This document shows, in pieces, positions 1-29,507 of a stretch of 31,841 nt of DNA. A program made the translations under genes and the position numbers. The notes beneath the pieces were generated by a model that was given only the letters and a program-made list of their open reading frames with translations, searched no databases and had not been told where the DNA came from. The stretch spans positions 1-31,841 of IMG/VR virus record IMGVR_UViG_2558860161_000007, one strand, 5' to 3'. The stretch comes from a virus. Lineage: Duplodnaviria > Heunggongvirae > Uroviricota > Caudoviricetes. Position 1 is the stretch's first letter. Each line of letters starts with the position of its first letter.

Positions 1-1053
1 ACCAAGGTATGTGAGAAGACCAGCTACATCCTTTCCACTCAAATTGGTAAGCGTATTGTCCAGCGGTTGTTTACCTGCCAGCGCATTAAGCATTGTCGTG
101 GCAAAGTTCGGGTCATTCCCCAGTGCCGCCGCCAGTTCGTTCAGTGTATCCAGTGCAGCAGGTGCAGAACCCACCATTCCTGCAATCGCCGATTTCACAA
201 AAGCCGTAGTGGCAATCTGTGTATTGTTGACCGACTGCGCCGCCGTGGGGGCTGTTGGCGTTCCGGTGAGTGCCGGACTCGACAACGGTGCTTTTAGTGC
301 CAGCGCATTGTTAATGGTGGTACTGAAATTCGGATCATTGTTAATGGCTGCGGCTATTTCTTTCAGCGTGTCCAGCGTGGCTGGCGCACCATTAATAAGG
401 GCCGTCAGTGCCGCCTGTACAAACGCAGTGGTCGCAACCTGCGTGGTATTATTCCCCGCCGCTGGCGTTGGCGCTTTGGGGGTTCCGGTAAATGTCGGGC
501 TGGCTTTTGGCGCGTACTGTGAATGCGGGTCCGGTGCGGCAAGATGTTTTGCCATCTGATCATCCGCGTACACCTTCAGCTCCAGTGCCTTGTCATCCAC
601 ATACTTGCGGGTTGCCAGCACTACAGCAGGGTCGATTTTCAGGGTGATATTGTCCGTGCTGCTGGTAATCAGCACCATGCGCACGGTCTGAGTGCGCCCG
701 CTACCTTCAGCCAGTTGCGGCTTATAGCTTTCCGGGCAGTTGCCCACGGCAATCAATGCCCCGGACTCATCAAACAAGCCCACTTCACGTATCCACCAAC
801 CGCCCTCGTTTTCAGGGATCACCTGTTCGGCAATAATCTGGCTGCTGTTCTGCGGGTCGATATAAAGCATATTCAGCGCAGCCCGGCGTTTCTCATTTAC
901 CAGTGCCGTCTGCTTTGCGTCCGGCGTTGGCAATACTCCACTGCCATCGCCCACCGCCATATGGGTAATTTTTAGCGGCACACCGAGCGCGGCGGCGCTG
1001 GCAAGTTTCGCCGCGCCAATATCCGTCAGCAGGGTATAAAATTTTGTGCTCAT
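1..1053 (-). CDS. H: Tail fibre protein (P2 gpH-like), N-terminal part; 3' end lies beyond the window start
   Basis: Reverse translation from an ATG at ~1053 begins MSTKFYTLLTDIGAAKLA..., resembling the conserved N-terminus of P2-family tail fibre H. The ORF runs off the window edge, and the ATG overlaps the gpI stop. The listed + strand ORF 11..559 is its antisense. Confidence 0.75.
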   Translation of the reverse strand, partial: MSTKFYTLLTDIGAAKLASAAALGVPLKITHMAVGDGSGVLPTPDAKQTALVNEKRRAALNMLYIDPQNSSQIIAEQVIPENEGGWWIREVGLFDESGALIAVGNCPESYKPQLAEGSGRTQTVRMVLITSSTDNITLKIDPAVVLATRKYVDDKALELKVYADDQMAKHLAAPDPHSQYAPKASPTFTGTPKAPTPAAGNNTTQVATTAFVQAALTALINGAPATLDTLKEIAAAINNDPNFSTTINNALALKAPLSSPALTGTPTAPTAAQSVNNTQIATTAFVKSAIAGMVGSAPAALDTLNELAAALGNDPNFATTMLNALAGKQPLDNTLTNLSGKDVAGLLTYLG

Positions 1054-1655
1054 GGATTCACTCTCATTGTGTCAATAACATGGACCGCCCCGCCTTCATG
1101 CGCGGTGCCACCGGAAATAATCGTTTCGTTGATATACGGATAGATCGTGATTTCTTCGCCAAGATAGCTGGCGGCTCCCACCCAATGCGGGCCGCTGGTC
1201 TGCAGATTGATGGACATGCCGATCATGTGGCGGCTACATGGTTTGGCATCGCTTATCAGTCGCTCAAGTTCCAGATAGGTATCTTCAGTGATGCCCTGGT
1301 CCTGCACGCCGATATCCAGGCGAAACGTGCCCGGTGCCTCTCCGGTCTGCCACCACTCAATAATGCGGATCAGAAAGCCGAACGGCTCCACCACCCGCCG
1401 CACGGCACTGGTGGTCCCTTTATGCTGATGAATATAAAAAGCATCCTTCACCACCTGGCGCTTGACGCTTTCTGTCCAGCCCTCGTCCCAGCGATCCACA
1501 GAGAACGCCCAGGCGAGATAAGGCAGGAAACTGACCGGACAGGTTGCCGGATTCCACAAGTCACGAAGCGGCACCTGCAGATCAGAAATCCCGCTGCAGG
1601 TTTGCGCCAGTCGGCGCTCCAGTGAAGTTGAACCCGGTGGCAGCAGACTATTCAT
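1050..1655 (-). CDS. I: Baseplate assembly protein I (P2 gpI-like)
   Basis: 201-aa ORF; DLWNP..C and LAWAFSVDRWDE motifs and overall resemblance to P2 gpI; position between J and H. Confidence 0.85.
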   Translation of the reverse strand: MNSLLPPGSTSLERRLAQTCSGISDLQVPLRDLWNPATCPVSFLPYLAWAFSVDRWDEGWTESVKRQVVKDAFYIHQHKGTTSAVRRVVEPFGFLIRIIEWWQTGEAPGTFRLDIGVQDQGITEDTYLELERLISDAKPCSRHMIGMSINLQTSGPHWVGAASYLGEEITIYPYINETIISGGTAHEGGAVHVIDTMRVNP

Positions 1656-2556
1656 CCGTTCCTCCGTTGGTTACGCTCCACTGCGTACATGATGCGGCCT
1701 GTGTTTTGTTCAGGACCACATCCGCCAGCGGTGAAGCCAGCTCCACACGTTGAACCCCCTCAACATGCAGCGCGGCAAAAATGGCACTACGGCGAATATC
1801 CCGACCAAGCCGCGTCTGACTGGCGATGTACTTCTGCAGGCTGGCTTTTGCCGCTGCCATTACCGGCTCCGCTTCCGGTCCCGGATAGAGAAAAATGGTG
1901 GCTTCCACACGGTACGGGATGATTTCTGCACTGCGAACCGTCAGACGGTCAGCCACCGGGCGGACGTTCTCACTGTTCAGGGCTTTTTCCACCACATCCA
2001 GCAGGTCTTTTTCTGCTGTTCCGTCGCCTTCGCGGCTAAGGACTGTCAGCACCACCTCTGCAGGTGCCGGACTGGTTGCACTGGCATCCGCCACCCGACC
2101 GTCGGCGCTTCGGGCATGAAATTCATAAGCTGCAGTTGGCCCCGCAACTGAAAGCCCCTCAAAGGCTGCAGGCACACGCAGGCGTAACGCTTCATCGCTT
2201 TCCATCACAGCTGCAACGGGCGGCACAGCGTCATCATCAGCAGGCGTCACCGTCAGGCGTTTCACGTTGTAGTTGGCAGCGAGCTGGTCCAGATCGCCGC
2301 CCATCGCGTAAGCCACCATCACCGCCTGCGCGGCTTCGTTAATGCGCTGGCGCAGAAGCAACTCACGGTAAGCGTTCTCCTGCAGCAATTTGGTGACGGG
2401 TTCAGATTCCAGTTCCAGCGTGCGGATCACAGCCTCCTGCTCATCTTTCGGATGAAGCGCCACAAATTCTGCCTTGCGTTCGGCAAGCAGCGTCTCAAAG
2501 TCCGGCACATCCACAATCTGCGGCGCAGGCAACTGCGAAAGGTCAATCACTGCCAT
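1648..2556 (-). CDS. J: Baseplate assembly protein J (P2 gpJ-like)
   Basis: ORF 1648..2595; the homology-consistent start is the internal Met (MAVIDLSQLPAP...) at ~2556; strong resemblance to P2 gpJ along its length. Confidence 0.85.
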   Translation of the reverse strand: MAVIDLSQLPAPQIVDVPDFETLLAERKAEFVALHPKDEQEAVIRTLELESEPVTKLLQENAYRELLLRQRINEAAQAVMVAYAMGGDLDQLAANYNVKRLTVTPADDDAVPPVAAVMESDEALRLRVPAAFEGLSVAGPTAAYEFHARSADGRVADASATSPAPAEVVLTVLSREGDGTAEKDLLDVVEKALNSENVRPVADRLTVRSAEIIPYRVEATIFLYPGPEAEPVMAAAKASLQKYIASQTRLGRDIRRSAIFAALHVEGVQRVELASPLADVVLNKTQAASCTQWSVTNGGTDE

Positions 2557-2902
2557 TCTCTGCTCCTGTTGATACGGAAAGGGACACAGGCACACCGTTA
2601 TTCCGCCGCCCGGTCAGCTCCACCACCATTGAACCGTCAAAATTGCTGTTGATGGTGATGGAATCCAGCGTCAGCCGTGGCTCCCAGCGACTCAGTGCCA
2701 CATACACAGCCGACATGACCTGCAGGCGTAACGCCGGATTTTGTGGCTGATCTATTAAAGCCGACAGCAGGGAACCATATTCCCGGCGGGCAATGCGGCT
2801 ACCCTGCGGTGTCAGCAGAATGTCCCGCACCGACTGGCGCAGATGGTCAATATCAGTAATAGCTTTACCGCTGGTATTGTTCATCCCGCTATAAAGCGTC
2901 AT
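2543..2902 (-). CDS. W: Baseplate wedge protein W (gp25/GPW family)
   Basis: 119-aa ORF between V and J; size, synteny and sequence typical of P2 gpW. Confidence 0.8.
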   Translation of the reverse strand: MTLYSGMNNTSGKAITDIDHLRQSVRDILLTPQGSRIARREYGSLLSALIDQPQNPALRLQVMSAVYVALSRWEPRLTLDSITINSNFDGSMVVELTGRRNNGVPVSLSVSTGAENGSD

Positions 2903-3477
2903 ACCGGACCTCCGGTGGTATCGCCGCCTTTCAGGACGCCAGTATGCTGATGCGCATCAACCACGATCCCGTTAGAACTCATCGCTCCGCCGCCCTGGGT
3001 AACGCCACCATTGATCACCACTTCGCTGTTAATGCGCGTGCGGTCAGCCTCCAGTACAAACTCACTGGTTTTCATGGTGATGTTGTCAGCGGCCTCAATG
3101 ACCATTGATTTGATGCCCCTGACATACCAGCGCCCACTGGCGGGTTCGTATTCAAACCAGCCACCGTCAGGATGTTCTGTCACGCAGGCGTCCGCCGACG
3201 TCGACGGTGGTGCGAACTGATTCGAATAGACAGCGGGCAGCGCAAAGGCCGTCTCCAGATTGCCGCCCAGACTCAGCAGCACCACCTGCTCACCTTCCGA
3301 TGGTCGCCACCATGTGCGGGCATTACCCGCGCGCAGCGTCAGCCAGTTAATCCAGTTGGTTTCAAGGTCGCCCGTTTTCACCCGGCAAAGCCAGTTTTCC
3401 CGGTCCACTTCGGTGACTACACCAGTGCGGATCAGGTTGGTGATAAGGCGCATGATTTCGGTTAATTGTGCGTTCAT
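2899..3477 (-). CDS. V: Baseplate spike/assembly protein V (P2 gpV-like)
   Basis: 192-aa ORF; N-terminal region (TGVV..V....CRV.TG) and C-terminal glycine-rich end resemble P2 gpV; first gene of the V-W-J-I-H block. Confidence 0.85.
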   Translation of the reverse strand: MNAQLTEIMRLITNLIRTGVVTEVDRENWLCRVKTGDLETNWINWLTLRAGNARTWWRPSEGEQVVLLSLGGNLETAFALPAVYSNQFAPPSTSADACVTEHPDGGWFEYEPASGRWYVRGIKSMVIEAADNITMKTSEFVLEADRTRINSEVVINGGVTQGGGAMSSNGIVVDAHQHTGVLKGGDTTGGPV

Positions 3478-3523
3478 AGGGAAAGGTTGCCATCAGGGGA
3501 AGAAAGGCGGCAGTGCTGCAACT

Positions 3524-3541
3524 TGTATCAGTGCTGATACA
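3524..3541. promoter_or_regulatory. TGT-N12-ACA dyad (candidate Ogr/Delta-type late-promoter activator site) upstream of gene V
   Basis: Sequence tgtatcagtgctgataca read directly, ~55 bp upstream of the V start codon. P2-family late promoters carry a TGT-N12-ACA element near -55. Confidence 0.4.
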
Positions 3542-3545
3542 AAGA

Positions 3546-3992
3546 TCATCCCGCCAGCCATTGCAGAATCATGTCGCGGGTCATTGCCTCAACATCATCA
3601 TTTACACCCAGCAGGCGGCGCTCTGCGTAACGGACCTCCGGTCCTTTGCGACTGACGCGATCACGCAGGCCGTAATGGTGAACACGGGCAATACGCTGCA
3701 CCTTGCCTTCAAACTGTACGCTGGCAGAGTCGGCGCTGGCGGCAGTTTTCAGGTATTTTGTGGTGCGCAACTTTGCAAACATCTGACGTTTGATGCGGCC
3801 TTTCTTGCTGCGTGCTGTTACCCTGCGCGGTTCATAACTGCTGCCATCTGGATTGCGCTGCATCCTGATATTCTGCTGCTGTGTCCGGCGCAGTTCCTGC
3901 GCCAGCTGGCGCATCATGCGGCTTCTCGTGGCTGGTTCCAGATTCGCCAGCAAGGCACTCAGCCAGTCGTCCACCTTCTGCAGTTCAGCCAC
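3546..3992 (-). CDS. S: Tail completion protein S (P2 gpS-like)
   Basis: 148-aa ORF; size and position after R and before V; resemblance to P2 S. Confidence 0.75.
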   Translation of the reverse strand: MAELQKVDDWLSALLANLEPATRSRMMRQLAQELRRTQQQNIRMQRNPDGSSYEPRRVTARSKKGRIKRQMFAKLRTTKYLKTAASADSASVQFEGKVQRIARVHHYGLRDRVSRKGPEVRYAERRLLGVNDDVEAMTRDMILQWLAG

Positions 3993-4437
3993 GTTTCACC
4001 GTCCACATTTCTTCAGGTGCATCAGGTTCCGCTATAGCTTCAACGCTCGACACACTGCCGTCAGTGCTGACCAGCACACGTTCCGTCAGTTGCAGGTTCA
4101 GGCTGATATCACAGACATCGTTGCGCAGAATATCCACCTCAAAGGTGAATAGCTTTTCCCGTAACGCCGGGTTATTGATGGCATCGGGCTGGTTATCCCT
4201 CAGCCACAGCAAAACCGGGGCCATCAGCAGATTCTGGTCGCCGCTGAAATCCTCAATCACCGCGTTCAGTGTGTAACGGTACTCCCACGACATGGAGCTG
4301 GCCCCCGTGGCAACCAGCGAACCGTTATCCACAAACAGATGCAGTTTGTCCGGGTTATTGCGGACATAAGGCACCGCTTTATTGAGGGCGTGGCGCAGGG
4401 ATTGTGGTTTGTTCACTGTTTCGCTCCTGACACGCAA
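3985..4437 (-). CDS. R: Tail completion protein R (P2 gpR-like)
   Basis: 150-aa ORF with conserved FVDNGS and YTLN..I.DF.GD segments as in P2 R. Confidence 0.75.
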   Translation of the reverse strand: MRVRSETVNKPQSLRHALNKAVPYVRNNPDKLHLFVDNGSLVATGASSMSWEYRYTLNAVIEDFSGDQNLLMAPVLLWLRDNQPDAINNPALREKLFTFEVDILRNDVCDISLNLQLTERVLVSTDGSVSSVEAIAEPDAPEEMWTVKRG

Positions 4438-4669
4438 TAATCATGTCCACTTTGTCTGCACAGACCGCCCAGGCGGCCTCCGTTTCATCCAGCAACGCGT
4501 TCAGGCCACCGTTAGTGCGCGGCGCTGCCTGTCCCAGCCGACACGGCGTCACTCGCGGACAACCACTGACGGTAAGCTGCACCTCCGGTGAGTGTGGGGC
4601 GTTCCCGCAGCCGGATAATGTCAGCAGGCAAAGGTGTATCAGCCCAGCGGCGTAAATCCTCGTTCTCAC
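4379..4669 (-). CDS. lysC: LysC-like outer-membrane lipoprotein spanin (Rz1-type), starting inside lysB in another frame
   Basis: 96-aa ORF with signal peptide plus lipobox (LLTLSGC) and a Pro-rich C-terminus; it starts within lysB and runs into R, as in P2. Confidence 0.6.
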   Translation of the reverse strand: MRTRIYAAGLIHLCLLTLSGCGNAPHSPEVQLTVSGCPRVTPCRLGQAAPRTNGGLNALLDETEAAWAVCADKVDMIIACQERNSEQTTIPAPRPQ

Positions 4670-9353: not shown

Positions 9354-9431
9354 GAGCCGTGCTCCGTTAGAAAAAACTTACTGGAGCCTTATGGTTGCGG
9401 TGATAGGGGCAGTGAAACAATGCGCGGTATT

Positions 9432-9449
9432 TGTACCGACAACCACACA
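9432..9449. promoter_or_regulatory. TGT-N12-ACA dyad (candidate late-promoter activator site) in the O/P divergent intergenic region
   Basis: Sequence tgtaccgacaaccacaca read directly; geometry fits a late promoter for the O operon. Confidence 0.4.
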
Positions 9450-9495
9450 AACCGCAGGCGGGGAAAGCCTTCATTCAAGGCTGTAGGTTTGTGCC

Positions 9496-11262
9496 ATGAA
9501 CACCACACTGACACCCGCAGATCTCGATCCCCGTCGGCAGGCCATGCTGCTGTACTTTCAGGGATACCGCGTCGCCCGCATTGCTGAAATGCTGGGCGAG
9601 AAAGTTGCAACCGTTCACAGCTGGAAAAAACGCGACAAGTGGGGTGACTATGGGCCGCTGGATCAGATGCAGCTCACCACCGCCGCACGCTACTGCCAGC
9701 TCATTATGAAGGAGCACAAAGAAGGGAAAGATTTCAAAGAAATTGACCTGCTGGCGCGCCAGTCGGAGCGCCACGCGCGGATCGGCAAGTTTAACAATGG
9801 CGGCAACGAAGCCGACTTAAACCCTAACGTCGCCAACCGCAACAAAGGCCCGCGCCGTCAGCCGGAAAAGAATGTTTTCACCGATGAGCAGATTGAGAAG
9901 CTGGAAGAAATCTTCCATTCCTCCATGTTTAACTACCAGCGCCACTGGTGGGAAGCCGGAAAAACCAACCGCATCCGCAACCTGCTGAAGTCACGCCAGA
10001 TCGGCGCGACCTTTTACTTTGCCCGTGAAGCCCTGATTGACGCTCTGCTTACCGGACGTAACCAGATTTTTCTTTCCGCCAGCAAGGCACAGGCTCACGT
10101 CTTTAAGCAGTACATCATAGACTTCGCCAAAGAAGTCGAGGTGGAGCTGAAAGGCGATCCGATGGTGCTTCCTAACGGAGCCACGCTTTACTTCCTCGGC
10201 ACCAATGCCCGCACGGCCCAGAGTTACCACGGCAACCTGTATCTGGATGAATATTTCTGGATACCGAAATTCCAGGAACTGCGCAAAGTTGCCTCCGGGA
10301 TGGCCATTCACAAGAAATGGCGACAAACCTACTTTTCCACGCCGTCCAGCCTTACCCACAGTGCCTATCCGTTCTGGTCCGGTGCGCTGTTTAACCGGGG
10401 CCGCGCCAAAGCGGACAAGGTGGATATTGACCTGACCCACAGCAATCTTGCGCGCGGCCTGCTCTGCCCTGACGGACAGTACCGCCAGATCGTCACCGTG
10501 GAGGATGCGGTGCGCGGCGGCTGTAACCTGTTCGACCTCGACCAGCTGCGCATGGAGTACAGCCCGGACGAATACCAGAACCTGCTGATGTGCGAATTTA
10601 TTGACGATTTGGCGTCAGTATTCCCGCTCAGCGAACTGCAGGCATGCATGGTGGACAGCTGGGAAGTCTGGACCGATTTTCAGGCTCTGGCGCTGCGCCC
10701 GTTTGGCTGGCGCGAGGTCTGGATCGGATACGACCCGGCGAAAGGCACGCAGAACGGTGACAGCGCCGGGTGCGTGGTGGTGGCACCGCCAGCCGTGCCG
10801 GGCGGCAAGTTCCGCATTCTGGAGCGACACCAGTGGCGCGGGATGGACTTCCGCGCCCAGGCTGACGCCATTAAAAAACTGACGCAGCAGTACAACGTGA
10901 CATACATCGGTATCGACTCGACCGGCGTTGGTCACGGGGTTTATGAGAACGTGAAAGCGTTCTTTCCTGCCGTGCGGGAGTTTGTCTACAACCCCAACGT
11001 CAAAAACGCCCTGGTGCTCAAGGCCTACGACATCATCAGCCACCGCCGTCTGGAGTTTGACGCCGGACACACTGACATTGCGCAGTCATTCATGGCAATC
11101 CGTCGCGCAACCACCGCCAGCGGCAACCGCCCGACCTATGAAGCCAGCCGCAGCGAAGAAGCCAGCCACGCCGATCTGGCCTGGGCAACAATGCACGCAC
11201 TGTTTAACGAACCGCTGCAGGGCGAATCCGCCAATACCAGCAATATTGTGGAGATTTTTTGA
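9496..11262 (+). CDS. P: Terminase large (ATPase) subunit P (P2 gpP-like)
   Basis: 588-aa ORF, nearly the P2 P length; Walker-A-like KSRQIGAT motif; overall resemblance. Confidence 0.9.
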   Translation: MNTTLTPADLDPRRQAMLLYFQGYRVARIAEMLGEKVATVHSWKKRDKWGDYGPLDQMQLTTAARYCQLIMKEHKEGKDFKEIDLLARQSERHARIGKFNNGGNEADLNPNVANRNKGPRRQPEKNVFTDEQIEKLEEIFHSSMFNYQRHWWEAGKTNRIRNLLKSRQIGATFYFAREALIDALLTGRNQIFLSASKAQAHVFKQYIIDFAKEVEVELKGDPMVLPNGATLYFLGTNARTAQSYHGNLYLDEYFWIPKFQELRKVASGMAIHKKWRQTYFSTPSSLTHSAYPFWSGALFNRGRAKADKVDIDLTHSNLARGLLCPDGQYRQIVTVEDAVRGGCNLFDLDQLRMEYSPDEYQNLLMCEFIDDLASVFPLSELQACMVDSWEVWTDFQALALRPFGWREVWIGYDPAKGTQNGDSAGCVVVAPPAVPGGKFRILERHQWRGMDFRAQADAIKKLTQQYNVTYIGIDSTGVGHGVYENVKAFFPAVREFVYNPNVKNALVLKAYDIISHRRLEFDAGHTDIAQSFMAIRRATTASGNRPTYEASRSEEASHADLAWATMHALFNEPLQGESANTSNIVEIF

Positions 11263-12355: not shown

Positions 12356-12694
12356 TCAGCAGACGGCATATACACCATCAAATCCAACAGAAGGCACCTT
12401 CTTTGATGCTACTTCATTGCTACGACGCTGGATCACCTTTGCAATACTTTTTAAAATTGAAGGGGATGCATTGCGAACCTTTACCTGGCTCAAAACTTTG
12501 GTTACGCCGAATTTCACAACCAAAACACCAAAGATTTCATCAGAGTATGATTCTGAAATTGAATAAACGCCGCTCAAATCCAAATCAACAAAGTTCCCCT
12601 CATTGATGAGAACTTCAATCTTGTGCCGTTGGGGGATAGCCTGATTGCGCGAAGCCAGGTCACCCTCGGGCAACTTGTATGCAATTTTATTCAT
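12356..12694 (-). CDS. Small STAS-like (anti-sigma-factor-antagonist-like) protein; second gene of a two-gene cargo operon
   Basis: 112-aa ORF; segment FVDLDLSGVYSISESYSDEIFGVLVVKFG resembles the STAS/SpoIIAA-type core; AGGAGG Shine-Dalgarno inside the end of the upstream gene, and its start overlaps that gene's stop. Confidence 0.55.
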   Translation of the reverse strand: MNKIAYKLPEGDLASRNQAIPQRHKIEVLINEGNFVDLDLSGVYSISESYSDEIFGVLVVKFGVTKVLSQVKVRNASPSILKSIAKVIQRRSNEVASKKVPSVGFDGVYAVC

Positions 12695-13815
12695 TACTCT
12701 CCTCCTAACGCCCGCATGATTTCCATAAGTTGAGGGTCATTTTCTTCGTTATCGTAATCTTTATCGATCGCCAGTTCATGAATCTTAAAACGGCATGAAA
12801 TTGCCACACCTGACCACTCTTTATGCAATTCAGTGTAGCTCAATTGATCACCAACTGCCTCTAAGCATACATTTCCTGTAGCCAGTTGCAATTCCCCGTT
12901 GTATGTTTTTACCAATTTCATCAAGTGATATAGACCAAGCCCTTGATGATTATTCTCTTTTTCTTTAACTGCTACCGGAACACTTGCACCAAAGACGCTT
13001 CCACCCATATTGTCATACGGCAATTGCTGTGCCCAATCATCTATCAGATCAGCATGTTTAGATGAGTTACCTTCTTGTATACACCATGCTATGGCATCAC
13101 GATGATTGTCAATTCCTTTGATGCCTGCGCGCCTTAACTCTCTAAAAAACCCCATGCCACAGTCTGCAAGAGCAAACTCAAGATAATGCTCTTTTCCACC
13201 GGTTCTTGGTACTGCCCATTTTTGCGCAAAAGAAAAACCGGTATCCCTACCATGCGACCAGACGTTGTCGTGTAACTCACCAACCACACGTGTGAGATCG
13301 TTTATCCCTTGAGGATAAACCTTCCTCTCAGGGAATGTTAATTGCCTAATACAGCTATTTATACTTGAAGTAGCTGAATCGACTGCTTCAACATTCTTCA
13401 GAGCTGTCACAAGGCTGTAGTTGGTTCCGACATTAACTCTTTTTTGGTCATAACGGTCTTCCCCCCAAACAGCTTTGTGCAGACCAATGGCATTCATGTA
13501 ACCTGCGCCAGGTAAGTTGCAAGCATCTTCTGACAGCTTATTGTGATTTATATAAGCAGCCAAGACAGCAATATAGCCAGGGTGACAATGGTCATTCGGT
13601 AAAAGCAATTTCCCCTCACCACGATCATGAAATATAGCAATGCGGTGAATACCATCTTTTAGACCAAATCCCATTGACCAATCTCCACGAAAAATTTCCC
13701 CTATAATATCGCCTGGGAAAACTGAGCGCAAAGTAAAGCACTTAACCAAGCTTGCGCGCGCTCGTATCCCCGCCACGCCTGCCCGCTTTATGTAGTGGTT
13801 TTCATGCACCTGCAT
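12694..13815 (-). CDS. GHKL-superfamily (histidine-kinase-like) ATPase domain protein; first gene of the two-gene cargo operon
   Basis: 373-aa ORF with N-box-like VVGELHDNVWSHG, G1-like LADCGMGF and G2-like HQGLGLYHL in canonical order. The first ~27 codons overlap the cos-like site; an alternative start at Met48 (~13674) has a GGAG Shine-Dalgarno. The region is lower in GC than flanking phage genes. Confidence 0.6.
   Translation of the reverse strand: MQVHENHYIKRAGVAGIRARASLVKCFTLRSVFPGDIIGEIFRGDWSMGFGLKDGIHRIAIFHDRGEGKLLLPNDHCHPGYIAVLAAYINHNKLSEDACNLPGAGYMNAIGLHKAVWGEDRYDQKRVNVGTNYSLVTALKNVEAVDSATSSINSCIRQLTFPERKVYPQGINDLTRVVGELHDNVWSHGRDTGFSFAQKWAVPRTGGKEHYLEFALADCGMGFFRELRRAGIKGIDNHRDAIAWCIQEGNSSKHADLIDDWAQQLPYDNMGGSVFGASVPVAVKEKENNHQGLGLYHLMKLVKTYNGELQLATGNVCLEAVGDQLSYTELHKEWSGVAISCRFKIHELAIDKDYDNEENDPQLMEIMRALGGE
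13761..13800. other. cos-like site (cohesive-end region) of the P2/186-type prophage
   Basis: Reverse complement reads GGCGTGGCGGGGATACGAG, resembling the 19-nt P2/186 cohesive-end core as I recall it; the flank is homologous to two repeats in the satellite (24567..24640, 24878..24960). Confidence 0.5.
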
Positions 13816-21562: not shown

Positions 21563-21607
21563 ATGTAGGAATTTCGGACGCGGGTTCAACTCCCGCCAGC
21601 TCCACCA
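21563..21607 (+). other. ssrA: Attachment-site core identical in character to the 3' end of tmRNA (ssrA), ending ...GGTTCAACTCCCGCCAGCTCCACCA
   Basis: The ~45-nt atgtaggaatttcggacgcgggttcaactcccgccagctccacca matches my recollection of the enterobacterial tmRNA 3' terminus; upstream is AT-rich phage DNA and the int stop, so only a 3' fragment is present. Confidence 0.65.
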
Positions 21608-21642
21608 AATAATGATCCGGATGTGTCCGGTGAAGTACAGAA

Positions 21643-21791: not shown

Positions 21792-22991
21792 GTGGCACGG
21801 ACAACTCGCCCCCTAACCAACACCGAAGTTCTGCGCGCGAAAGCGTTAGAGAAGGATCTAACGCTGCATGATGGTGATGGGCTTTTCCTGATAGTGAAAA
21901 CTAGCGGCAAGAAACTCTGGCGCTTTCGCTATCAACGCCCAGCAACAAAACAACGGACTATGATGGGACTTGGTGCTTTTCCTGCCCTTTCTCTTGCTGA
22001 TGCCCGAGGGTTAAGAGCAGATTACCTTGCCCTATTAGCCAACGGAATCGACCCGCAAATTCAAGCTGAAGTTGCAGAGGAACAGCAGCAAATCGCTCTG
22101 GACAGTATTTTTTCGACGGTCGCCGCTAACTGGTTCCAGCTCAAAAGCAAAAGCGTTACCCCTGATTACGCTAAAGATATATGGCGTTCACTGGAAAAAG
22201 ACGTATTTCCAGCTATCGGTGAGACCCCTGTCCAGCAAATCAAAGCCCGAACACTGGTTGAAGCCCTTGAACCGATCAAAGCACGTGGGGCGCTGGAGAC
22301 AGTTCGTAGACTGGTACAGCGTATCAACGAAATAATGATTTATGCGGTTAACACTGGCTTGATTGATGCCAACCCCGCATCAGGTATTGGTATGGCTTTT
22401 GAGAAACCCAAAAAGCAAAACATGCCGACGTTGCGACCAGAAGAATTGCCTAAGCTGATGCGTTCGCTAGTCATGTCAAATCTATCTGTTCCGACTCGCT
22501 GTCTTATTGAGTGGCAACTCCTGACGCTCGTGCGCCCTTCTGAGGCTTCAGGTGCTCGATGGGCTGAGATCGATCTCAATGCCAAACTCTGGACAATTCC
22601 AGCCGAACGAATGAAAGCTAAACGTGAACATATAGTACCTCTATCTACACAGGCGTTAGAGATTCTAGAAGTGATGAAGCCAATCAGTGCTCATCGCGAA
22701 CATGTTTTTCCGAGCAGGAACGACCCCAAAAAATCAATGAACAGCCAAACGGCAAACGCTGCCTTAAAACGCATAGGCTATGGAGGTAAGCTTGTTGCTC
22801 ATGGTCTACGTTCTATAGCGAGTACAGCTCTTAATGAAAATGGTTTTAATCCAGATGTAATTGAAGCAGCATTAGCACATTCGGATAAGAATGAAGTAAG
22901 ACGTGCATATAATCGTTCTACCTATTTAGAACAACGTCATGAGTTAATGAATTGGTGGGGTTGTAAAGTTTGCCCTACCAATTCATTATAA
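21792..22991 (+). CDS. int: Tyrosine integrase (P4/CP4-57 family) of the satellite element
   Basis: 399-aa ORF (GTG start); N-terminal arm-binding-type region (GDGLFLIV...KLWRFRY) and C-terminal catalytic region (AHGLRS...ALAHSDKNEVRRAYNRSTY). Confidence 0.9.
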   Translation: MARTTRPLTNTEVLRAKALEKDLTLHDGDGLFLIVKTSGKKLWRFRYQRPATKQRTMMGLGAFPALSLADARGLRADYLALLANGIDPQIQAEVAEEQQQIALDSIFSTVAANWFQLKSKSVTPDYAKDIWRSLEKDVFPAIGETPVQQIKARTLVEALEPIKARGALETVRRLVQRINEIMIYAVNTGLIDANPASGIGMAFEKPKKQNMPTLRPEELPKLMRSLVMSNLSVPTRCLIEWQLLTLVRPSEASGARWAEIDLNAKLWTIPAERMKAKREHIVPLSTQALEILEVMKPISAHREHVFPSRNDPKKSMNSQTANAALKRIGYGGKLVAHGLRSIASTALNENGFNPDVIEAALAHSDKNEVRRAYNRSTYLEQRHELMNWWGCKVCPTNSL

Positions 22992-23002
22992 GATAAAACA
23001 GA

Positions 23003-24421
23003 TCATACTTTACCGGGGTATGTTTTAAACATACTCCTTAATACGTCAAATGTCTGTTCACCTATGATTGAAAATTCTTTAATCATTTCCATTAAGTTAT
23101 TTCGGCTAATCAAGAAAATATACAAACCTTGATCTTTCGATATTTCTTTCACTCTATCAAGATACTTTTCCTCGGCAGAATTTTCGCAGAATATTAAACC
23201 TATCTTAGAATTACATTCTTCGACTTTTCTAAGTGTAGTATAAATATGTTCCTCGTTCAATTTATGCTGAGGATCAATGACATTTACAACTATCAACTCT
23301 GAAATAATGTTGTACACTGAAAAATCGAAAAAGAAACCTTTCTTAGCCTCATTAATTAATGAAAAGAGGCAGCACTGTTCATCCTCACTTATTAATTTGG
23401 GGTAAAACAAGCTAGGATAGAAGATTGAAATCAATATTTTCTTGTATGCTTTAGTGTAATTACTAAAGTCGTTGTTTTTAATTGATAAATCAATATCTTT
23501 CATTAGATCTTTTATGGGGAGAATTACAGGATCTTCATCCTTATCAAAATCACTATGCGCTAGAGGATTCGGAGGATTAATCTCCAGCTCTTTTTTATAT
23601 TCTTTCAAGGTGTTAGGGTATTTTACGAGCTGAGACTCGATAAATCCCTTAGTCTGACCATACTCATCAATGATACTTGTTGTGGTAACAATCCGCTCCC
23701 CTTTAAGCACTTTAACTAATGCCGAGCCAGAGCTTATCAATTCCTTTTTCATTTCCGGAATAATATGCCTCCGATATAAATCCCTATGTGAATAGATTAT
23801 CTCTTCACGTGCAAGTATCTTAGGAATAAGGATAATCTCCTCGCCTTCATAAACAGGGAGATGAAAACGATTTTTATGCCATTTACTACTAACCTTATCC
23901 CACGTTTTGACTTCTGAAACCTCTTTAGTCTCAATGCCGTAAAATATACAAATATCCTTTGTATATTCTATAAAAAAACCTTTGAGAATATTACAAACTG
24001 AATCCGATATTCGGTCAGAACCAATACCTGGGATAGTCAGAGCTGTATCTTCTAGATCAGTTAATATTCCTGATTTTGCAGCCTGACTACTCTTTAGAGA
24101 ATCCAAAATATCTTCAGCAGTTTTTTCACCAAGAGCAGTTCCGGATGATTCTTTTGTTGAATATCCTAAATGAAAGGCATTGGTCTCTCTTAGTGATGAC
24201 AATAAATAAGCAGCTTTTTTAAAATTATTATTCTTTATAGACGCCATTATTTCTGTAAAATAGTCTTGTAACGCGTAAACTAAATCCTGCCCCCATTGGG
24301 ATTTTAAAACCTTTATAGATGTTGGATCTAAAAAAAACCTTAAATCAGTATGCAGAGGAATATCCAAAAAATCTAACGCTACTTGTCTGCCTTCAACTCC
24401 AAAAGCCTCTGAAAACCTCAT
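23003..24421 (-). CDS. Hypothetical AT-rich cargo protein (~472 aa) in the satellite int-cos hotspot
   Basis: ORF 23003..24448; likely start is the ATG at ~24421 with a GGAG Shine-Dalgarno. GC is markedly lower than its neighbours, it is convergent with int, and I recognise no domain by eye. Confidence 0.55.
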   Translation of the reverse strand: MRFSEAFGVEGRQVALDFLDIPLHTDLRFFLDPTSIKVLKSQWGQDLVYALQDYFTEIMASIKNNNFKKAAYLLSSLRETNAFHLGYSTKESSGTALGEKTAEDILDSLKSSQAAKSGILTDLEDTALTIPGIGSDRISDSVCNILKGFFIEYTKDICIFYGIETKEVSEVKTWDKVSSKWHKNRFHLPVYEGEEIILIPKILAREEIIYSHRDLYRRHIIPEMKKELISSGSALVKVLKGERIVTTTSIIDEYGQTKGFIESQLVKYPNTLKEYKKELEINPPNPLAHSDFDKDEDPVILPIKDLMKDIDLSIKNNDFSNYTKAYKKILISIFYPSLFYPKLISEDEQCCLFSLINEAKKGFFFDFSVYNIISELIVVNVIDPQHKLNEEHIYTTLRKVEECNSKIGLIFCENSAEEKYLDRVKEISKDQGLYIFLISRNNLMEMIKEFSIIGEQTFDVLRSMFKTYPGKV

Positions 24422-24566
24422 GTAACACTCCTTTACAATAATCAACATAAAAACAAGAGCATTCTTATTTTTATAGCAAAGGTGGTTTAATCACAAGATC
24501 TTATGAATTGAGCAACAATAATTATCCCTATTTTTTGAAGCTGACGAACATTTCACGTTGCGTACA

Positions 24567-24640
24567 GAGCTTTCCCCGCCTCGCCTGCACGCCTCGTGGG
24601 TCTGTTTTAATGCAGTTGCTTTGCGAGGCTCAGGCTGCCA
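24567..24640. repeat. cos-like repeat copy 1 (P2-type variant)
   Basis: Reverse complement reads GGCGAGGCGGGGAAAGCTC; homologous to copy 2 and to the helper cos-like region. Confidence 0.5.
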
Positions 24641-24877
24641 CAGACTCGAATACGTCAAGGGAATAGCAGCTTTAGAAGCGACGTAATGAACGCCAGAATG
24701 ACTAGTTTCCTCCACCGCCGGGCGGCCTTTTCTTGCACTTCTCCTGACCACCTCAGGGCTCTCCACGCCCTCGAACAGCACCGCACCACCCACCGACACT
24801 CCCGAGAACCCGCGCAGTACAGCGACGCACTCAGGCCGCGAAATTAAATATAATTAAATACTTTACCGCTGGCGCGC

Positions 24878-24960
24878 AATGCTCTCCCCGCCACGCCTGC
24901 CCGCTTCCCGGGGCGCTTTTAATGCAGGTGCATGAAGAGGCTCAGGCCGCGCCAGTGCTG
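24878..24960. repeat. cos-like repeat copy 2 (variant closest to the resident helper)
   Basis: Reverse complement reads GGCGTGGCGGGGAGAGCAT; the flank (ctgcccgctt...ttttaatgcaggtgcatga) aligns with the helper region at 13761..13815. Confidence 0.5.
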
Positions 24961-25061
24961 GTGCGACAGAGTGTGGAAAATTCAGGGTTTTGCATGCAAA
25001 GCCATGCAGCGTAGGCATGCATGGCTATTTTTATTAAAAAGACGGGTATTTTCGGGGCGTT

Positions 25062-25637
25062 TTATGCGGATTTTTTGCGGGTCTGCGCGGCCTGTCGGCG
25101 CATGAAAATCTGACTCTGTTCAGGCGTATATTTTGCCCGGTTGTCGTCTCTCGATGCTCTGTCAGGCCGGAAACCGATGGTTGTCAGAATGTCGCGATCA
25201 TCCTCTGCGTAATCAATATTTCCTCCGCGGGTTACATAAACGGACAGCGCTTCGCGAACACTGGCGGCCGCCCGGTCGAGAGCACGTTCTCTGACAATGT
25301 CAGGTTGTTCGCTGAGATGCATTAATTCCGGTGCCAGTGCGGCGGCCAGCGCGTCGCCGCTTACCTGCATAAAGGCGTGGAGCTGACACCGGATACTGAT
25401 ACGCTGCACGGCCTCATGTGACCGGATGTACTGCCCGGCCGACTGATTTACCGCCCATTTTTTCAGGTCAATATCATCCCGCAGCGCCTGTGCGGCCTCC
25501 GGTTCATAACGGGTGCAGGTCAGCTCCAGCTCCTTCAGCGCCATTTCTGCCCGCGCCAGTGCTGACTTGCTGCTCATCCAGTCCGATTTATTCTTCTGAC
25601 AGGTTTCAAAGGCCTGTTCCAGTAGTGCTCGTGCCAT
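25062..25637 (-). CDS. psu: Psu-like polarity suppression / capsid decoration protein
   Basis: 191-aa ORF; conserved AGQYIRSHEAVQ.ISIR and ILTTIGFRPD segments, as I recall for P4 Psu (190 aa). Confidence 0.8.
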   Translation of the reverse strand: MARALLEQAFETCQKNKSDWMSSKSALARAEMALKELELTCTRYEPEAAQALRDDIDLKKWAVNQSAGQYIRSHEAVQRISIRCQLHAFMQVSGDALAAALAPELMHLSEQPDIVRERALDRAAASVREALSVYVTRGGNIDYAEDDRDILTTIGFRPDRASRDDNRAKYTPEQSQIFMRRQAAQTRKKSA

Positions 25638-25653
25638 TGTCTTTTCTCCTGAA

Positions 25654-25896
25654 TCAGTGGCGCAGCGATGACCGGGCGCAGTCCAGAATTCGGGGCGGTG
25701 TTTCTGGTACTGTTTGTGGTGGTTCGGGCTTTTCTTCTGCCGGTGGCCGTATCACCTCGTCGATAGACTCGGTGGTGCGAAAGGTTGCGGAGCAAAAGAC
25801 ATTCACGCACTGGAGGTAGCTCTGTTTGACGTTATCTGACAGGTAACGGCTGGTACGGACATGGGCAGCCTGTTTGCAGTACGGGCAGCGCATCAT
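25654..25896 (-). CDS. delta: Delta/Ogr-family zinc-finger late transcription activator
   Basis: 80-aa ORF starting MMRCPYC with CPYC...C..C..CSATF, the hallmark of Ogr/Delta. Confidence 0.85.
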   Translation of the reverse strand: MMRCPYCKQAAHVRTSRYLSDNVKQSYLQCVNVFCSATFRTTESIDEVIRPPAEEKPEPPQTVPETPPRILDCARSSLRH

Positions 25897-26696
25897 GGCT
25901 TAACCCCCCGCGTTTTTTTCTTCTGTGCCAGCTCTTTAGCCCGCGCCATTCTGAGAACAGGGCTTTTATAGAGTTTCATATCCACGCCGGTGAGTGCCGG
26001 ACGGTGAAGCCCAATTTTTGAAATTACTGGTTCATGCTCCATGTTGAATGTGTAGTACCTGCTTTGCGCCAGTACATTCTCACCCAGCTCCTGAATGAGA
26101 ACGTTGTGAGGGTGTTCTTCTCCCTTAATCTCGAGCTCACGCAGACGTAACGCAAATGCGCGCACCAGTGAGGGAGGGATGTCTTTCATCACGGTCGCCC
26201 ACTCATTCCGGGAGTAGGCAGAGAACACCGTAAAATGCGTGCCGACGTACTTATCTCCTGATGTACAGGCGGACAGCATGGTACTGGCCTTATCATCGTT
26301 GAGTTCATCAATCAGGGCGGTGAATTCCTCCGCCAGCTCCCGACCGGCCACTCGCTGACTGTGTTCGGCTTTCAGTTCCGGGGTCATCATGCCGCGCAGT
26401 TCGCGAAAACGGGTACGCCAGTTCTGTTCGGCTTCGGCACTTTCATTCAGGGCGTTCTGACGCTCTTTCTCACTGCGGGCAATGGCCGCATCAATATCAT
26501 TCAGCTTCAGCATGTTTTCCGTGTGCGCGGATTTGGCCTTGCTGAACACATCAAGAGCGTTATTTATCGTGGCCTCGGCGTTCTGGTTTGCTTTCTCGTT
26601 AAGGGTATCCAGTGCGCTGTCAATGGCCGTGCGGATGTTCTCATCCTGCGTGCTGCCGATGGTTTTCATTACTGCGGTAAACAAATCTGGTTTCAT
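25893..26696 (-). CDS. sid: Sid-like capsid size determination protein (putative)
   Basis: 267-aa helical/charged protein in the sid position of the psu-delta-sid operon; assigned by synteny and character, not strong sequence recall. Confidence 0.5.
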   Translation of the reverse strand: MKPDLFTAVMKTIGSTQDENIRTAIDSALDTLNEKANQNAEATINNALDVFSKAKSAHTENMLKLNDIDAAIARSEKERQNALNESAEAEQNWRTRFRELRGMMTPELKAEHSQRVAGRELAEEFTALIDELNDDKASTMLSACTSGDKYVGTHFTVFSAYSRNEWATVMKDIPPSLVRAFALRLRELEIKGEEHPHNVLIQELGENVLAQSRYYTFNMEHEPVISKIGLHRPALTGVDMKLYKSPVLRMARAKELAQKKKTRGVKP

Positions 26697-26770
26697 CGTC
26701 GGGTTCTCTCTGTGTTTTCAACCTGACGCCATTCTGCCGTCCCTCAGACAACAACTCGATTCATTGCCGT

Positions 26771-26788
26771 TGTAGCAGACATGGCACA
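26771..26788. promoter_or_regulatory. TGT-N12-ACA dyad upstream of the sid operon (candidate Psid activator site)
   Basis: tgtagcagacatggcaca, ~83 bp upstream of the sid-like start. Confidence 0.4.
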
Positions 26789-26864
26789 AACAGGACTTAA
26801 AAACCCGGCTGGCCAGAGAAAGGTCGCAGGAAACCCCCTCTCTCTGTTTGTTTTTTTACATATA

Positions 26865-26970
26865 ACTATTCACTACTGTTCACTCAGAATAAAAATATAA
26901 GTAAAACAATAAATTAAAGAGTGAACAGTTGAGAGGGAAGTGTTCACCAACTGTTCACTACTGTTCACTG
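26865..26970. promoter_or_regulatory. Cluster of CTGTTCAC repeats (five or more copies, both orientations) in the satellite divergent regulatory region
   Basis: ctattcactactgttcactcag ... gagtgaacagttgag ... tgttcaccaactgttcactactgttcactgg, read directly. Confidence 0.35.
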
Positions 26971-27247
26971 GTCTGAACATCCCGAATGTAAATTTTATGC
27001 GGTATGTCCTATTAATTCATGCTGTTAGGGTGATTAAATCAATTTGCATTTCACTTTTGAAATCTCCAGTGCCTTATAACTCCTTCCAGTGCCTTTAAAT
27101 GGTCTTGAGTAAAAAAACAGCACCCGTTGTCCCGTGCTTTGTACAATTTCCCCCTGTTGCATTGAGAAAAAATATTCACAAAATAGAGCGCTACCTGATA
27201 CCGGACGGACACGTCCGGATCTCTGCGGATATTAACGAGGTAGCGTT

Positions 27248-27514
27248 ATGCACACAGTTTCATCAGTACCATCGTCCCCCACAACCGCGCACCTGATGCC
27301 GGTTTCAGCCCCGGCTCAGGAACGTTTTTTACGTCTCCCGGAAGTCATTCATCAGTGCGGTCTGTCCCGCTCCACGCTCTACGATTTAATTGCCCGCAAT
27401 GCTTTCCCGGCGCAGGTTTCCCTCGGGGGTAAAAATGTCGCCTGGCTGCAGTCTGAAATCACAGCGTGGATGGCAGAACGTGTCGCGCACCGCAACCGGA
27501 AATACGACGCATGA
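27248..27514 (+). CDS. AlpA/Vis-family HTH transcriptional regulator
   Basis: 88-aa ORF containing [29 protein letters not shown], the AlpA-type helix-turn-helix; GAGG Shine-Dalgarno upstream. Confidence 0.7.
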
Positions 27515-27549
27515 ATCAGAGCCGATTTCACAAAGCCCCTTTTTCTGGC

Positions 27550-27665
27550 TTGCATCCGTTGTGTGTTTCCTGGTACAGTTTTGTCGCTGTCGCAAAATCG
27601 ACAGCCGGGCGTGGAAACCCGAGCAACTCGAAGGCGACACCAGACGCGCCATGCGTCTTTTTTTG
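27550..27665 (+). ncRNA. Candidate small structured RNA (promoter-hairpin-terminator unit) in the satellite immunity-region position
   Basis: TTGCAT-18 bp-TACAGT promoter-like hexamers, hairpin gctgtcg-caaaat-cgacagc, then stem agacgc-gccat-gcgtct followed by TTTTTTT; the long overlapping ORFs here lack convincing starts. Confidence 0.3.
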
Positions 27666-27912
27666 TGTCGCAACTAACGCCACAGAGCGCCAGATAATGG
27701 CGTGGTGTGCGGATCGTCGTGCAGACGTCACTTTGTGTCTCCTGTCCGCAATCGCATATCATGCTGTCATGTCAATGGTAGCTCAGGCGGGGCAGCCCTC
27801 GGGCTGGCCGGTATTCTTCGAGGCCGGTATTTCCACCCCCGTCTGGGCTATCGCCACTGAGCGTGGAAACTCCGGCGATAGCAATAATTTGCTACTCGAA
27901 GGAGGTTGCCTT

Positions 27913-28110
27913 ATGGCTACGACCCTCACTCCGTCTCACCCGCAGTTTGTCTTTGTGTTTGCCGCCGTCCGTCGCGCAGACCGTAAGCCCCGTATCTGTA
28001 TGCTCCGCACCGTTGCCGGTGACGAGCTGGCCGCCCGCCGCACCCTTGTCCGCGAATACGTGCTTTCCCTTGCCGCCCGTCTGCCGGTTCTGGAGGTGTC
28101 ACATGCATAA
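27913..28110 (+). CDS. Hypothetical small protein (65 aa)
   Basis: ATG preceded by a GGAGG Shine-Dalgarno (gaaggaggttgccttATG); terminates with an overlap on the next start. Confidence 0.45.
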
Positions 28111-28402
28111 TAAAAATACCCCTCAGACCGTCTCAGCGCGTCGTGATGACCTTAACCCCATGAAGGAACACCTCAGCATAGAGGCGTACCATAAACTCAA
28201 TCGCGCCAGCGCCGTCTCACAGTTCGTGGGAGGAGATTTGCTGCGCCGTGAACTGAACGGTTTACACCAGCTATACCTGCCGCAGATTTTTAGTTATATC
28301 CATGAGGACGTCAGCTACGTCCTGGAAGAGCTGAAAGCCAAAGGCCTGTGCCGTGACTTTCTCGCCACGACGTCGGGAAACGGAGGTGAGCACCATGTTT
28401 GA
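28103..28402 (+). CDS. Hypothetical protein (99 aa)
   Basis: ATG (MHNKNTPQ...) preceded by GGAGGTG; lies within the longer 27863..28402 track ORF. Confidence 0.5.
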
Positions 28403-28844
28403 TTTCCCTCAGCCGGGTGAAACATATCGCTGTACAGGATTTCCTGATGTGGTGGTGTCGGGCGTGCTGGCCGACGGTATTCCGTGGGATATGCCGTACC
28501 GCTGTCCGGGGCTGGTCTGGAACCCGTACCGGCGCACCTACACCATCCTCATTCGTATTATTGCCGGTGGCAGCATGGCAGAAATTCCGCTCGGTCGTTT
28601 TTTGCGGGACTTTACCTGTGAGCATCCCGACGTATTTAAACGTAACCCTGAAAACCGCCACGCCGTATTACGCGAAATAGCGGCCGACCCGGCATTACAG
28701 CAATACCGGGCGCGGAATATCGATAACTATCCTGACGATATTCCCCCGGTTAAACGTCCGGCGCCGGTGGCGCATAAATGGCGGAATAATTTCAGACCGG
28801 AAACGGAAATAAAACCGGATAACAGCTACCGCCATTATCTGTAA
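28395..28844 (+). CDS. Hypothetical protein (149 aa)
   Basis: ATG ([11 protein letters not shown]...) preceded by GGAGGTGAGC; overlaps the previous stop. Confidence 0.5.
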   Translation: MFDFPQPGETYRCTGFPDVVVSGVLADGIPWDMPYRCPGLVWNPYRRTYTILIRIIAGGSMAEIPLGRFLRDFTCEHPDVFKRNPENRHAVLREIAADPALQQYRARNIDNYPDDIPPVKRPAPVAHKWRNNFRPETEIKPDNSYRHYL

Positions 28845-28915
28845 TTAAAAACGACACCCAAAAATAAAATGTGCGTATCTGCGCAGGGATACGCACGTCC
28901 TCAGGAGACGAAATA

Positions 28916-29176
28916 ATGCCTGTTAACAGTACGGAACGGCCGCAGAATACAAACCAGCCCATCATCAGCCGGGCAGACCTTGAATGTCTCGAACATATGC
29001 GCAACGTCGGCCAGCTCGTCGGCGACCTGATGCAGGTGCAGGACTGCACCTCTTTGCGCCACAACCCGGCGCAGCAACTACAGCTCACCTCGGTGATTTA
29101 CCTCATGACTGCCCGGCTCGACGGCGTGGTCGACCGCTGTAATCAGCGCTGGCTGACCGGGGAGGGCAACGTATGA
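28916..29176 (+). CDS. Hypothetical protein (86 aa)
   Basis: ATG (MPVNSTERP...) preceded by AGGAGA; a perfect hairpin gtgcgtatc-N8-gatacgcac lies just upstream. Confidence 0.45.
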
Positions 29177-29493: not shown

Positions 29494-29507
29494 GGGAGAA
29501 AATAACG

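Follow-up and report, generated by a model that had tools for sequence, protein, structure and literature searches.

Gene V, which encodes the baseplate spike of a P2/186-like prophage, is preceded by a palindrome in the IMG/VR virus record IMGVR_UViG_2558860161_000007 (Caudoviricetes), of which positions 1 to 31,841 were analysed (hereafter the window, 31,841 nucleotides (nt) in length). This palindrome (3524..3541) is very probably the site of a late activator of the Ogr/B/Delta family in a PV-type late promoter, from which V would be transcribed as a leaderless messenger RNA (mRNA). The element would be an orthologue of the textbook P2 promoter, a known design that is correctly recognized but ordinary. 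Only the comparative evidence for a leaderless V throughout the family and some side observations are mildly new.

The predicted activator site upstream of gene V

On the plus strand, the predicted activator-binding dyad reads TGTATCAGTGCTGATACA and is an exact match to the consensus TGT-N12-ACA; as a dyad, it is not assigned to either strand. Its arms, TGTATCAG and CTGATACA, flank a 2-nt centre (TG) with perfect complementarity, which makes an 8+2+8 inverted repeat, and the extra pair T3523/A3542 extends it to a 20-base-pair (bp) palindrome of 9+2+9 (3523-3542). The original prediction had located the element correctly and given its sequence without error, although its wording, 'near-perfect', was an understatement. 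Relative to the A of the V ATG (3477, minus strand), the dyad spans -64..-47. Its centre (3532.5) lies 55.5 bp upstream, in agreement with the roughly 55 bp that had been predicted.

The same geometry is annotated in P2. In the P2 RefSeq record, the centre (10252.5) of the PV activator site (10239-10266) and the start of the V operon (10308) are 55.5 bp apart, and the V coding sequence begins at this very base, meaning that no leader is annotated. The other P2 late promoters have their site centre 55 (PO), 56 (PP) and 57-59 bp (PF) from the start. All four, i.e., PP, PO, PV and PF, have the common consensus TGT-N12-ACA and require Ogr, a zinc-finger activator (PMC3931495). The P2 PV promoter (Christie and Calendar 1985) is situated directly upstream of the tail genes V-W-J-I-H. 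Likewise, the dyad in the window stands after S and directly upstream of the V-W-J-I-H(-G) operon, according to Pfam matches and the annotation of relatives. The proposal of a PV-type late promoter is thus supported by the motif, by its position, by the genomic context of P2 PV and by its conservation in otherwise unrelated surrounding DNA.

The motif alone would not have been sufficient to single out this site. The bare TGT-N12-ACA pattern has 10 occurrences in the window where 7.4 would be expected, a count that is not significant and is uninformative when taken alone. It was therefore replaced by an independent weight matrix. Inverted repeats that are perfect over arms of 8 nt or more occupy 5 distinct places, where about 2.5 are expected; this is a modest enrichment, and the count as such would not have been significant. 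The matrix was derived from 20 V-upstream sites of relatives whose upstream sequence is unrelated, the window's own family being excluded, and was run over both strands of the whole window with 30 shuffles as control. The V dyad (3545..3520, minus strand) scored 24.0 bits, the top of all positions in the window, and the maximum in the shuffled sequences was 17.9 bits. Its perfect symmetry fits the most symmetric version of a site for a symmetric protein, in which exact symmetry would be optional.

Conservation among relatives of V

A set of 240 IMG/VR loci encoding V relatives was compared, 80 each having been retrieved with the V proteins of the window, P2 and 186 as queries. The clade of the window comprises V proteins with at least 89% identity. 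Upstream families were defined by clustering the 75 nt upstream of the ATG, with at least 20/75 ungapped differences between families. This gave 21 distinct families in the window's clade and 56-57 overall. Within the clade, 20 of the 21 families are unrelated to that of the window. About half of the loci in the clade keep the window's 68-bp spacer between S and V, and the rest have unrelated sequence upstream of V.

TGT and ACA are kept at the same offset from the V ATG across these unrelated sequences. In the ungapped alignment of the 21 families on the ATG, T-64, G-63 and T-62 are conserved at 90, 76 and 76%, A-49 and A-47 at 81%, and A-11 and T-7 at 86%. The flanking T-66, T-65 and A-46 reach 71% each; the two T belong to a T-rich stretch just 5' of TGT, and A-46 lies just 3' of ACA. 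From +1 on, the coding sequence is conserved at 70% or above, and no position at or above 70% was found within -45 to -12 or -6 to -1. A hexamer of the form xAxxxT starts at -12 in 17 of the 21 families, compared with a mean of 2.1 per offset. When all 56 families are considered, this hexamer starts at -12 in 38 and at -13 in 18, and TGT starts at -64 in 34 and at -65 in 17.

Diverged but homologous regions point in the same direction. TGT and ACA are invariant in those of Fels-2, SopEPhi, a Yersinia phage and a Klebsiella phage, which are 75-83% identical to the window. The block GGCAAYCTT, which contains the -10 region, is invariant in six such regions, and CTGCC at -36..-32 is invariant as well. 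The inner arm bases change symmetrically in Fels-2 (TGTGCCA-CTGC-TGGCACA) and in the Klebsiella phage (TGTGTCA-GGGA-TGACACA), and asymmetrically in the Yersinia phage (TGTGCCA..TGGTACA). Taken together, the homologous changes and the column composition give TGTRYCA as the refined half-site of the clade, with TGTRYCA-N4-TGRYACA as the predicted complete site.

The S-V junction (the equivalent of 3478-3545 in the window; loci L004-L081) is also a hotspot of inserted cargo genes. Where S could be located, 0.6 to >1.5 kb of unrelated DNA separates it from V. The insert is usually one opposite-strand open reading frame (ORF) of 190-480 amino acids (aa), like orf30 of P2. Each insert-bearing relative has its own version of the PV promoter.

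Predicted core promoter and leaderless start of V

Downstream of the dyad, a -10-like hexamer, CAACCT (3484..3489, minus strand), is located at -12..-7 from the A of the ATG, inside the conserved block GGCAACCTT. A weak -35-like hexamer, CTGCCG (3508..3513, minus strand), is found 18 bp from it at -36..-31 and matches TTGACA at 3/6 positions. Its counterpart in the P2- and 186-type clades is TTGCCG, and ATTGC at -37..-33 is conserved in both groups. No full sigma-70 consensus promoter was found by a consensus scan of 3300-3750, and none would be expected there if the promoter depends on an activator. Poor hexamer matches are indeed to be expected of an activator-dependent promoter, and are no proof in themselves.

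In a sigma-70 -10 hexamer, the two bases that matter most are those present here as A-11 and T-7. Since both are held at a fixed distance from the ATG, transcription is predicted to start on the A of the ATG, or within a base of it. A3477 is the only purine among positions 3478-3476. The conserved -10 hexamer at -12..-7 would imply a start at this A, and the dyad centre lies 55.5 bp from it, the distance annotated in P2.

The translation signals of V agree with an mRNA that lacks a leader. No Shine-Dalgarno sequence was found upstream of the V ATG when pairing with the 16S anti-Shine-Dalgarno sequence was compared in 15 late genes. The pairing energy of V (-1.8 kcal/mol) is the weakest of the 15, most of the others ranging from -5 to -11. 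GGAG, GAGG or AGGA occurs within -17..-5 in only 2 of 56 promoter families. The start codon of V (3475..3477, minus strand) is ATG in 100% of the families compared, and sequence conservation begins exactly there. This ATG is the most upstream start possible for the V ORF. The N-terminus of the protein (Met1-Asn2, MN...) aligns with V of P2 and 186 from residue 1, and residues 1-10 are conserved. Judging from these alignments, the start codon is fixed at 3477.

PMC4633059 describes an AUG requirement of leaderless translation, which fits the presence of ATG in every family. The same paper counts P2 among the few known cases of leaderless genes in E. coli, with reference to the work of Christie and Calendar (1985) on late promoters. 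A literature search on a leaderless gene V in P2 retrieved nothing direct, so that a leaderless P2 V is supported here by the RefSeq annotation and by this secondary citation (PMC4633059).

The original prediction had placed the expected start very close to the ATG, which agrees with the P2 annotation and the -10 hexamer at -12..-7, and had concluded that either the leader is very short or V starts slightly downstream. The first option went in the right direction, and the evidence points further, to no leader at all: given the same dyad-to-ATG distance as in P2, the position of the -10 hexamer and the missing Shine-Dalgarno sequence, the proximity of start and ATG would be resolved by a leaderless V mRNA, as in P2. 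The second option is not supported, as Met1 aligns with V of P2 and 186, conservation starts at the ATG, and no ribosome-binding site precedes the next methionine (Met9, 3453). Furthermore, the convergence of unrelated upstream sequences on one spacing argues for a leaderless V in the whole group.

It is improbable, by comparison, that the activator site is real and the V mRNA nonetheless starts a few bases away from the ATG, in which case V would have a very short leader, or its translation would begin at an internal codon, for instance Met9. The centre-to-start distance of the four P2 promoters ranges from 55 to 59 bp, which makes a start up to 4 nt inside V geometrically possible, and AACCTT at -11..-6 offers another register for the -10 hexamer. 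Against this stand the P2 start on the first base of V and the description of P2 as leaderless in PMC4633059, the sharp peak of A-11/T-7 conservation at one offset, A3477 as the sole purine at the expected position, the fully conserved ATG at which conservation sets in, and the alignment of residues 1-10 together with the missing Shine-Dalgarno sequence before Met9.

In summary of the proposed mechanism, late in the lytic cycle the activator would bind two TGTRYCA half-sites centred at -55.5. Two candidates for this activator are Ogr of the prophage itself, whose gene would lie outside the window, and the Delta protein from the neighbouring P4-like satellite. It would recruit sigma-70 RNA polymerase to the weak core made of CTGCCG (-36..-31) and CAACCT (-12..-7). 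In P2, recruitment takes place via the alpha subunit of RNA polymerase, on which the late promoters of the P2 family depend (they are blocked by rpoA109). Transcription would initiate at A3477 or within a base of it. The resulting V-W-J-I-H(-G) mRNA would be leaderless, with V translated without a Shine-Dalgarno sequence and the downstream genes using their own sites. We infer binding, activation and the exact start site from sequence and from the precedent of P2.

Alternative readings of the palindrome

Several points weigh against an activator site followed by a leaderless V. The core hexamers are poor, CAACCT agreeing with TATAAT at 2/6 positions and the -35-like hexamer with its consensus at 3/6, and the bare motif, as mentioned above, is hardly more frequent than expected. 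The start at A3477 is deduced from geometry and from P2, whose start-site annotation reportedly goes back to nuclease mapping of the 1980s and may be off by 1-2 bases. In P2, the dyad of the PV site is incomplete (TGTTGTCTGGTAGTTCTACA), with 11 or 14 nt between TGT and ACA, compared with the perfect 9+2+9 and exact N12 of the window. In the P2- and 186-type V clades, the search for a strict N12 mostly failed: TGT stands at -65, and the right half-site is 10-11 nt off or degenerate. The TGT-N12-ACA consensus is thus looser than its name. Finally, the symmetric changes of the arm bases in Fels-2 and the Klebsiella phage fit an RNA hairpin as well as a protein site. As regards P2, the differences in spacing, in symmetry and in the absence of an inserted gene are of degree. 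The activator specificity of the window's clade may be somewhat different from that of the P2- and 186-type clades.

An additional feature was observed in these two clades (L085-L242). In many of their promoters, an inverted repeat, TTGCCGCCGG-N6-CCGGCGGCA, fills the spacer between the -35-like and -10-like hexamers. Both this repeat and the right half-site at 10-11 nt are absent from the window's clade.

The palindrome could also act mainly as an RNA hairpin, i.e., a terminator or stabilizer at the 3' end of the O operon, and not as a promoter element. In the minus-strand reading, it begins 4 nt past the S stop codon, a 9-bp RNA stem with -7.9 kcal/mol is possible, and P2 has a putative terminator after S. 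The stem is nevertheless A/U-rich and is followed by AGUUGCAGC..., without a U-tract, so that it does not have the features of a rho-independent terminator, and the terminator scan of 3300-3750 made no call at the dyad. The scan gave a single weak terminator-like match inside the end of S (3569-3548), which is within chance expectation. Where relatives carry an insert of 0.6 to >1.5 kb between S and V, TGT-N12-ACA stays with V and not with S. Among the 20 foreign sites, 10 cannot fold, and inner-arm complementarity averages 2.15 of 5 pairs versus 1.25 by chance; what is conserved is TGT, ACA and the distance to the ATG. As the stem is not conserved in foreign sites and the motif travels with V, the hairpin or terminator function was rejected and is regarded as very unlikely.

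Least likely of all is that the palindrome is due to chance or binds an unrelated protein with no role in late transcription, such as a CRP-type regulator, whose half-sites share the outer bases TGT and ACA: the frequency of the bare motif (10 versus 7.4) and the roughly 2.5 perfect palindromes with 8-bp arms expected per window would allow for chance, but the dyad is the top-scoring site of the window for a matrix from independent sites, the same motif recurs at the same offset in 20 unrelated upstream sequences, TGT and ACA are invariant at 75-83% overall identity, and TGT and ACA are 12 nt apart with inner bases TGTAT..ATACA, as opposed to 10 nt apart in the CRP consensus TGTGA-N6-TCACA.

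Similarity to other known promoters

A PV-type late promoter with a leaderless V thus remains the preferred reading, and it can be compared with known systems. The -10 region resembles that of P2 (GCAATCT in P2, GCAACCT in the window), and a strong -35 is absent in both. The sequence between the site and the -10 hexamer cannot be aligned with P2. P2 also carries the non-essential orf30 between S and V, where the window has no insert.

In phage 186, the corresponding promoter is located upstream of orf32, the V homologue. It is not annotated in the 186 record used here, and we take it to be dependent on the B protein. The arrangement is likewise compact, with 69 bp between S and the V homologue, and TGT lies about 65 bp upstream of the ATG, similar to the window. 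The core is homologous to that of the window (xTGCCGC around -36 and GGCAYCCTT around -14..-6), and the immunity region, with 186-type CI and CII, is of the same type. Unlike the window, 186 does not have ACA at N12 in its right half-site (TGTGTGAACCACCACCGG). Many members of the 186-type V clade, although not 186 itself, have an inverted repeat, GCCGCCGG..CCGGCGGC, between -35 and -10, which the window lacks.

The Psid and PLL promoters of the satellite P4, activated by Delta or Ogr, share the activator family and the TGT-N12-ACA element with the site described here. P4-type satellite promoters differ from the V promoter in that they have ordinary leaders, drive satellite genes and are not situated upstream of tail genes. 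A more distant parallel is the cI mRNA of lambda, which according to PMC4633059 starts with AUG, lacks a Shine-Dalgarno sequence and is made from an activator-dependent promoter, PRM. In that case there is no relationship in activator (CI at -42), gene or phage family, and the likeness is one of mechanism only.

Operon and prophage context

V (2899..3477, minus strand; 192 aa) is the first gene of its operon and was identified by Pfam Phage_base_V (5.4e-18) and the GpV Apex motif. It is followed on the same strand by W (2543-2902; GPW_gp25), J (1648-2556, the ORF extending to 2595; Baseplate_J) and I (1050-1655; Tail_P2_I), all according to Pfam. The 5' part of H (1-1053, minus strand) runs off the left end of the window and was assigned by comparison with an E. 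coli prophage of 98.4% identity annotated in RefSeq. Strong Shine-Dalgarno sites of their own precede W and I, as determined by anti-Shine-Dalgarno pairing. Upstream of V, the tail completion gene S (3546..3992, minus strand; Phage_tail_S, 5.4e-42) is the last gene of the O operon and is preceded by R (3985-4437, minus strand; Pfam). In the window, S and V are separated by 68 bp with no inserted gene. No terminator was found between them in this compact arrangement by the scan of 3300-3750, and read-through from PO probably adds to the transcription of the V operon.

The minus-strand gene order is H-I-J-W-V-S-R, lysis genes and X-L-M-N-O, with P-Q on the plus strand. Beyond P-Q, cargo genes, the replication gene A, CII (Phage_CP76), CI (Phage_CI_repr and Phage_CI_C) and the integrase are found. 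By its gene content, the prophage, hereafter called the helper with regard to its satellite, is P2/186-like, with a P2-type gene order and a 186-type immunity region (CI, CII). At the old/tin position (12356-13815), the helper carries cargo genes for a 112-aa DUF4325 (STAS-like) protein and a 373-aa protein, the latter without a Pfam match. Cargo is already known to vary at this position, as it is at that of the satellite cargo described below.

In the S-V region, identity amounts to 95-97% with Klebsiella and Escherichia phages of the genus Elveevirus, compared with about 83% for Fels-2 and SopEPhi. Related DNA is present in about a quarter of the complete E. coli genomes (1312/5426), and the prophage type also occurs in Klebsiella and Salmonella phages.

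The putative site shared by O and P

A sister site of the same regulon, TGT-N12-ACA at 9432..9449, again without an assigned strand, lies in the divergent O/P intergenic region. This PO/PP site (9428..9453) has the second-best matrix score in the window (21.7 bits). P2 likewise has one shared PO/PP site. The terminase gene P has its ATG (9496) 55.5 bp from the centre of the dyad, with TAGGTT at -12..-7 (9484-9498 region). P shows weak Shine-Dalgarno pairing, and its start aligns with those of P2 and 186 P. In P2, the P mRNA has a leader of 23 nt, and the O-P spacer measures 173 bp, versus 142 bp here. In this lineage, P may also be leaderless, as suggested by these distances and alignments.

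For the PO/PP geometry, 80 relatives of the O protein were retrieved, all of them at least 98% identical. TGT, ACA and the predicted -10 are invariant in all 80, and the comparison is little informative since the intergenic regions hardly vary at all.

A second strong match to the activator matrix was observed at 9490-9507 (TGTGCCATGAACACCACA), where it overlaps the start codon of P. It reaches 18.8 bits, above the shuffle maximum of 17.9. Its distance to the PO/PP site is 58 bp, and the conservation of the match is confounded by coding constraint.

Activator genes and the P4-like satellite

The only activator gene of the Ogr/Delta family inside the window belongs to a P4-like satellite (21792-31841), located directly beside the helper. 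It encodes an 80-aa C4 zinc-finger protein (25654..25896, minus strand; Ogr_Delta, 5.6e-18), whose four cysteines in the arrangement CX2CX22CX4C align with P2 Ogr and 186 B. The helper's own ogr should be located beyond D, to the left of the window. Indeed, ogr is found at the far end of closely related prophages, i.e., one that is 98.4% identical over positions 1-4500 of the window and a phage that is 95.8% identical over S-V. In the P2/P4 system, Delta activates the late promoters of the helper. By analogy, the Delta-like protein of this satellite could act on the late promoters of the helper described here.

The satellite further comprises an integrase (21792-22991), psu (25062-25637), a sid-like gene (25893-26696), alpA (27248-27514), the isrK RNA (27586-27663), the C4 antisense RNA (27771-27858) and a 777-aa primase/helicase (29508-31841). 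Its cargo region (23003-24799) contains two ORFs. One of them (481 aa) matches the PADLOC candidate defence family PDC-M36A (2.8e-32), and no match was found for the 102-aa ORF that follows it.

Three TGT-N12-ACA elements are present in the satellite, each of them preceded by CCGT. The Psid-like element (26771-26788) scores 18.3 bits, and its centre is 83.5 bp upstream of the ATG of the sid-like gene. The second (27128-27145) is a weight-matrix match upstream of alpA, and the third (27560-27577) is found just upstream of isrK. In addition, the A+T-rich intergenic region between sid and alpA contains a cluster of TGTTCAC/GTGAACA repeats at about 26870-26985, with three copies of actgttcact and inverted copies. 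This cluster is probably an operator array of some regulator.

Between the integrases of helper and satellite, the 3' end of ssrA, the gene for transfer-messenger RNA (tmRNA), was noticed at about 21563-21612 (...ATGTAGGAATTTCGGACGCGGGTTCAACTCCCGCCAGCTCCACCA). Recognized by eye, this 3' fragment presumably is the attachment core. A tRNA/tmRNA scan of the window found no complete tmRNA or tRNA gene. This arrangement points to a tandem integration of the two elements at ssrA. Coverage of 80% or more of the helper-satellite junction was found in only 1 of 5426 complete E. coli genomes.

Implications

A broader interpretation can be put forward tentatively, although it is more doubtful than the assignment of the promoter itself. 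The PV unit, i.e., the dyad at -64..-47, the -10 hexamer at -12..-7 and the leaderless ATG, might form a compact portable module that is kept or rebuilt with each cargo insertion between S and V, in at least 20 unrelated contexts. P would be leaderless as well, and the perfect palindrome would be a high-affinity site. If this is true, the high-affinity palindrome would let the Delta of the satellite neighbouring at ssrA efficiently switch on the tail genes of the helper. With helper and satellite side by side and a common motif at the sid-like gene and alpA, the locus would be a convenient natural system for cross-activation.

The finding adds little new biology. For gene callers, it means that V, and possibly P, would lack a ribosome-binding site by design. 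Moreover, the comparison across families provides an argument for a leaderless V that is independent of P2. The well-studied design of the P2 late promoters, with a site at -55, a weak core and a leaderless V, would thereby extend to this type of prophage.

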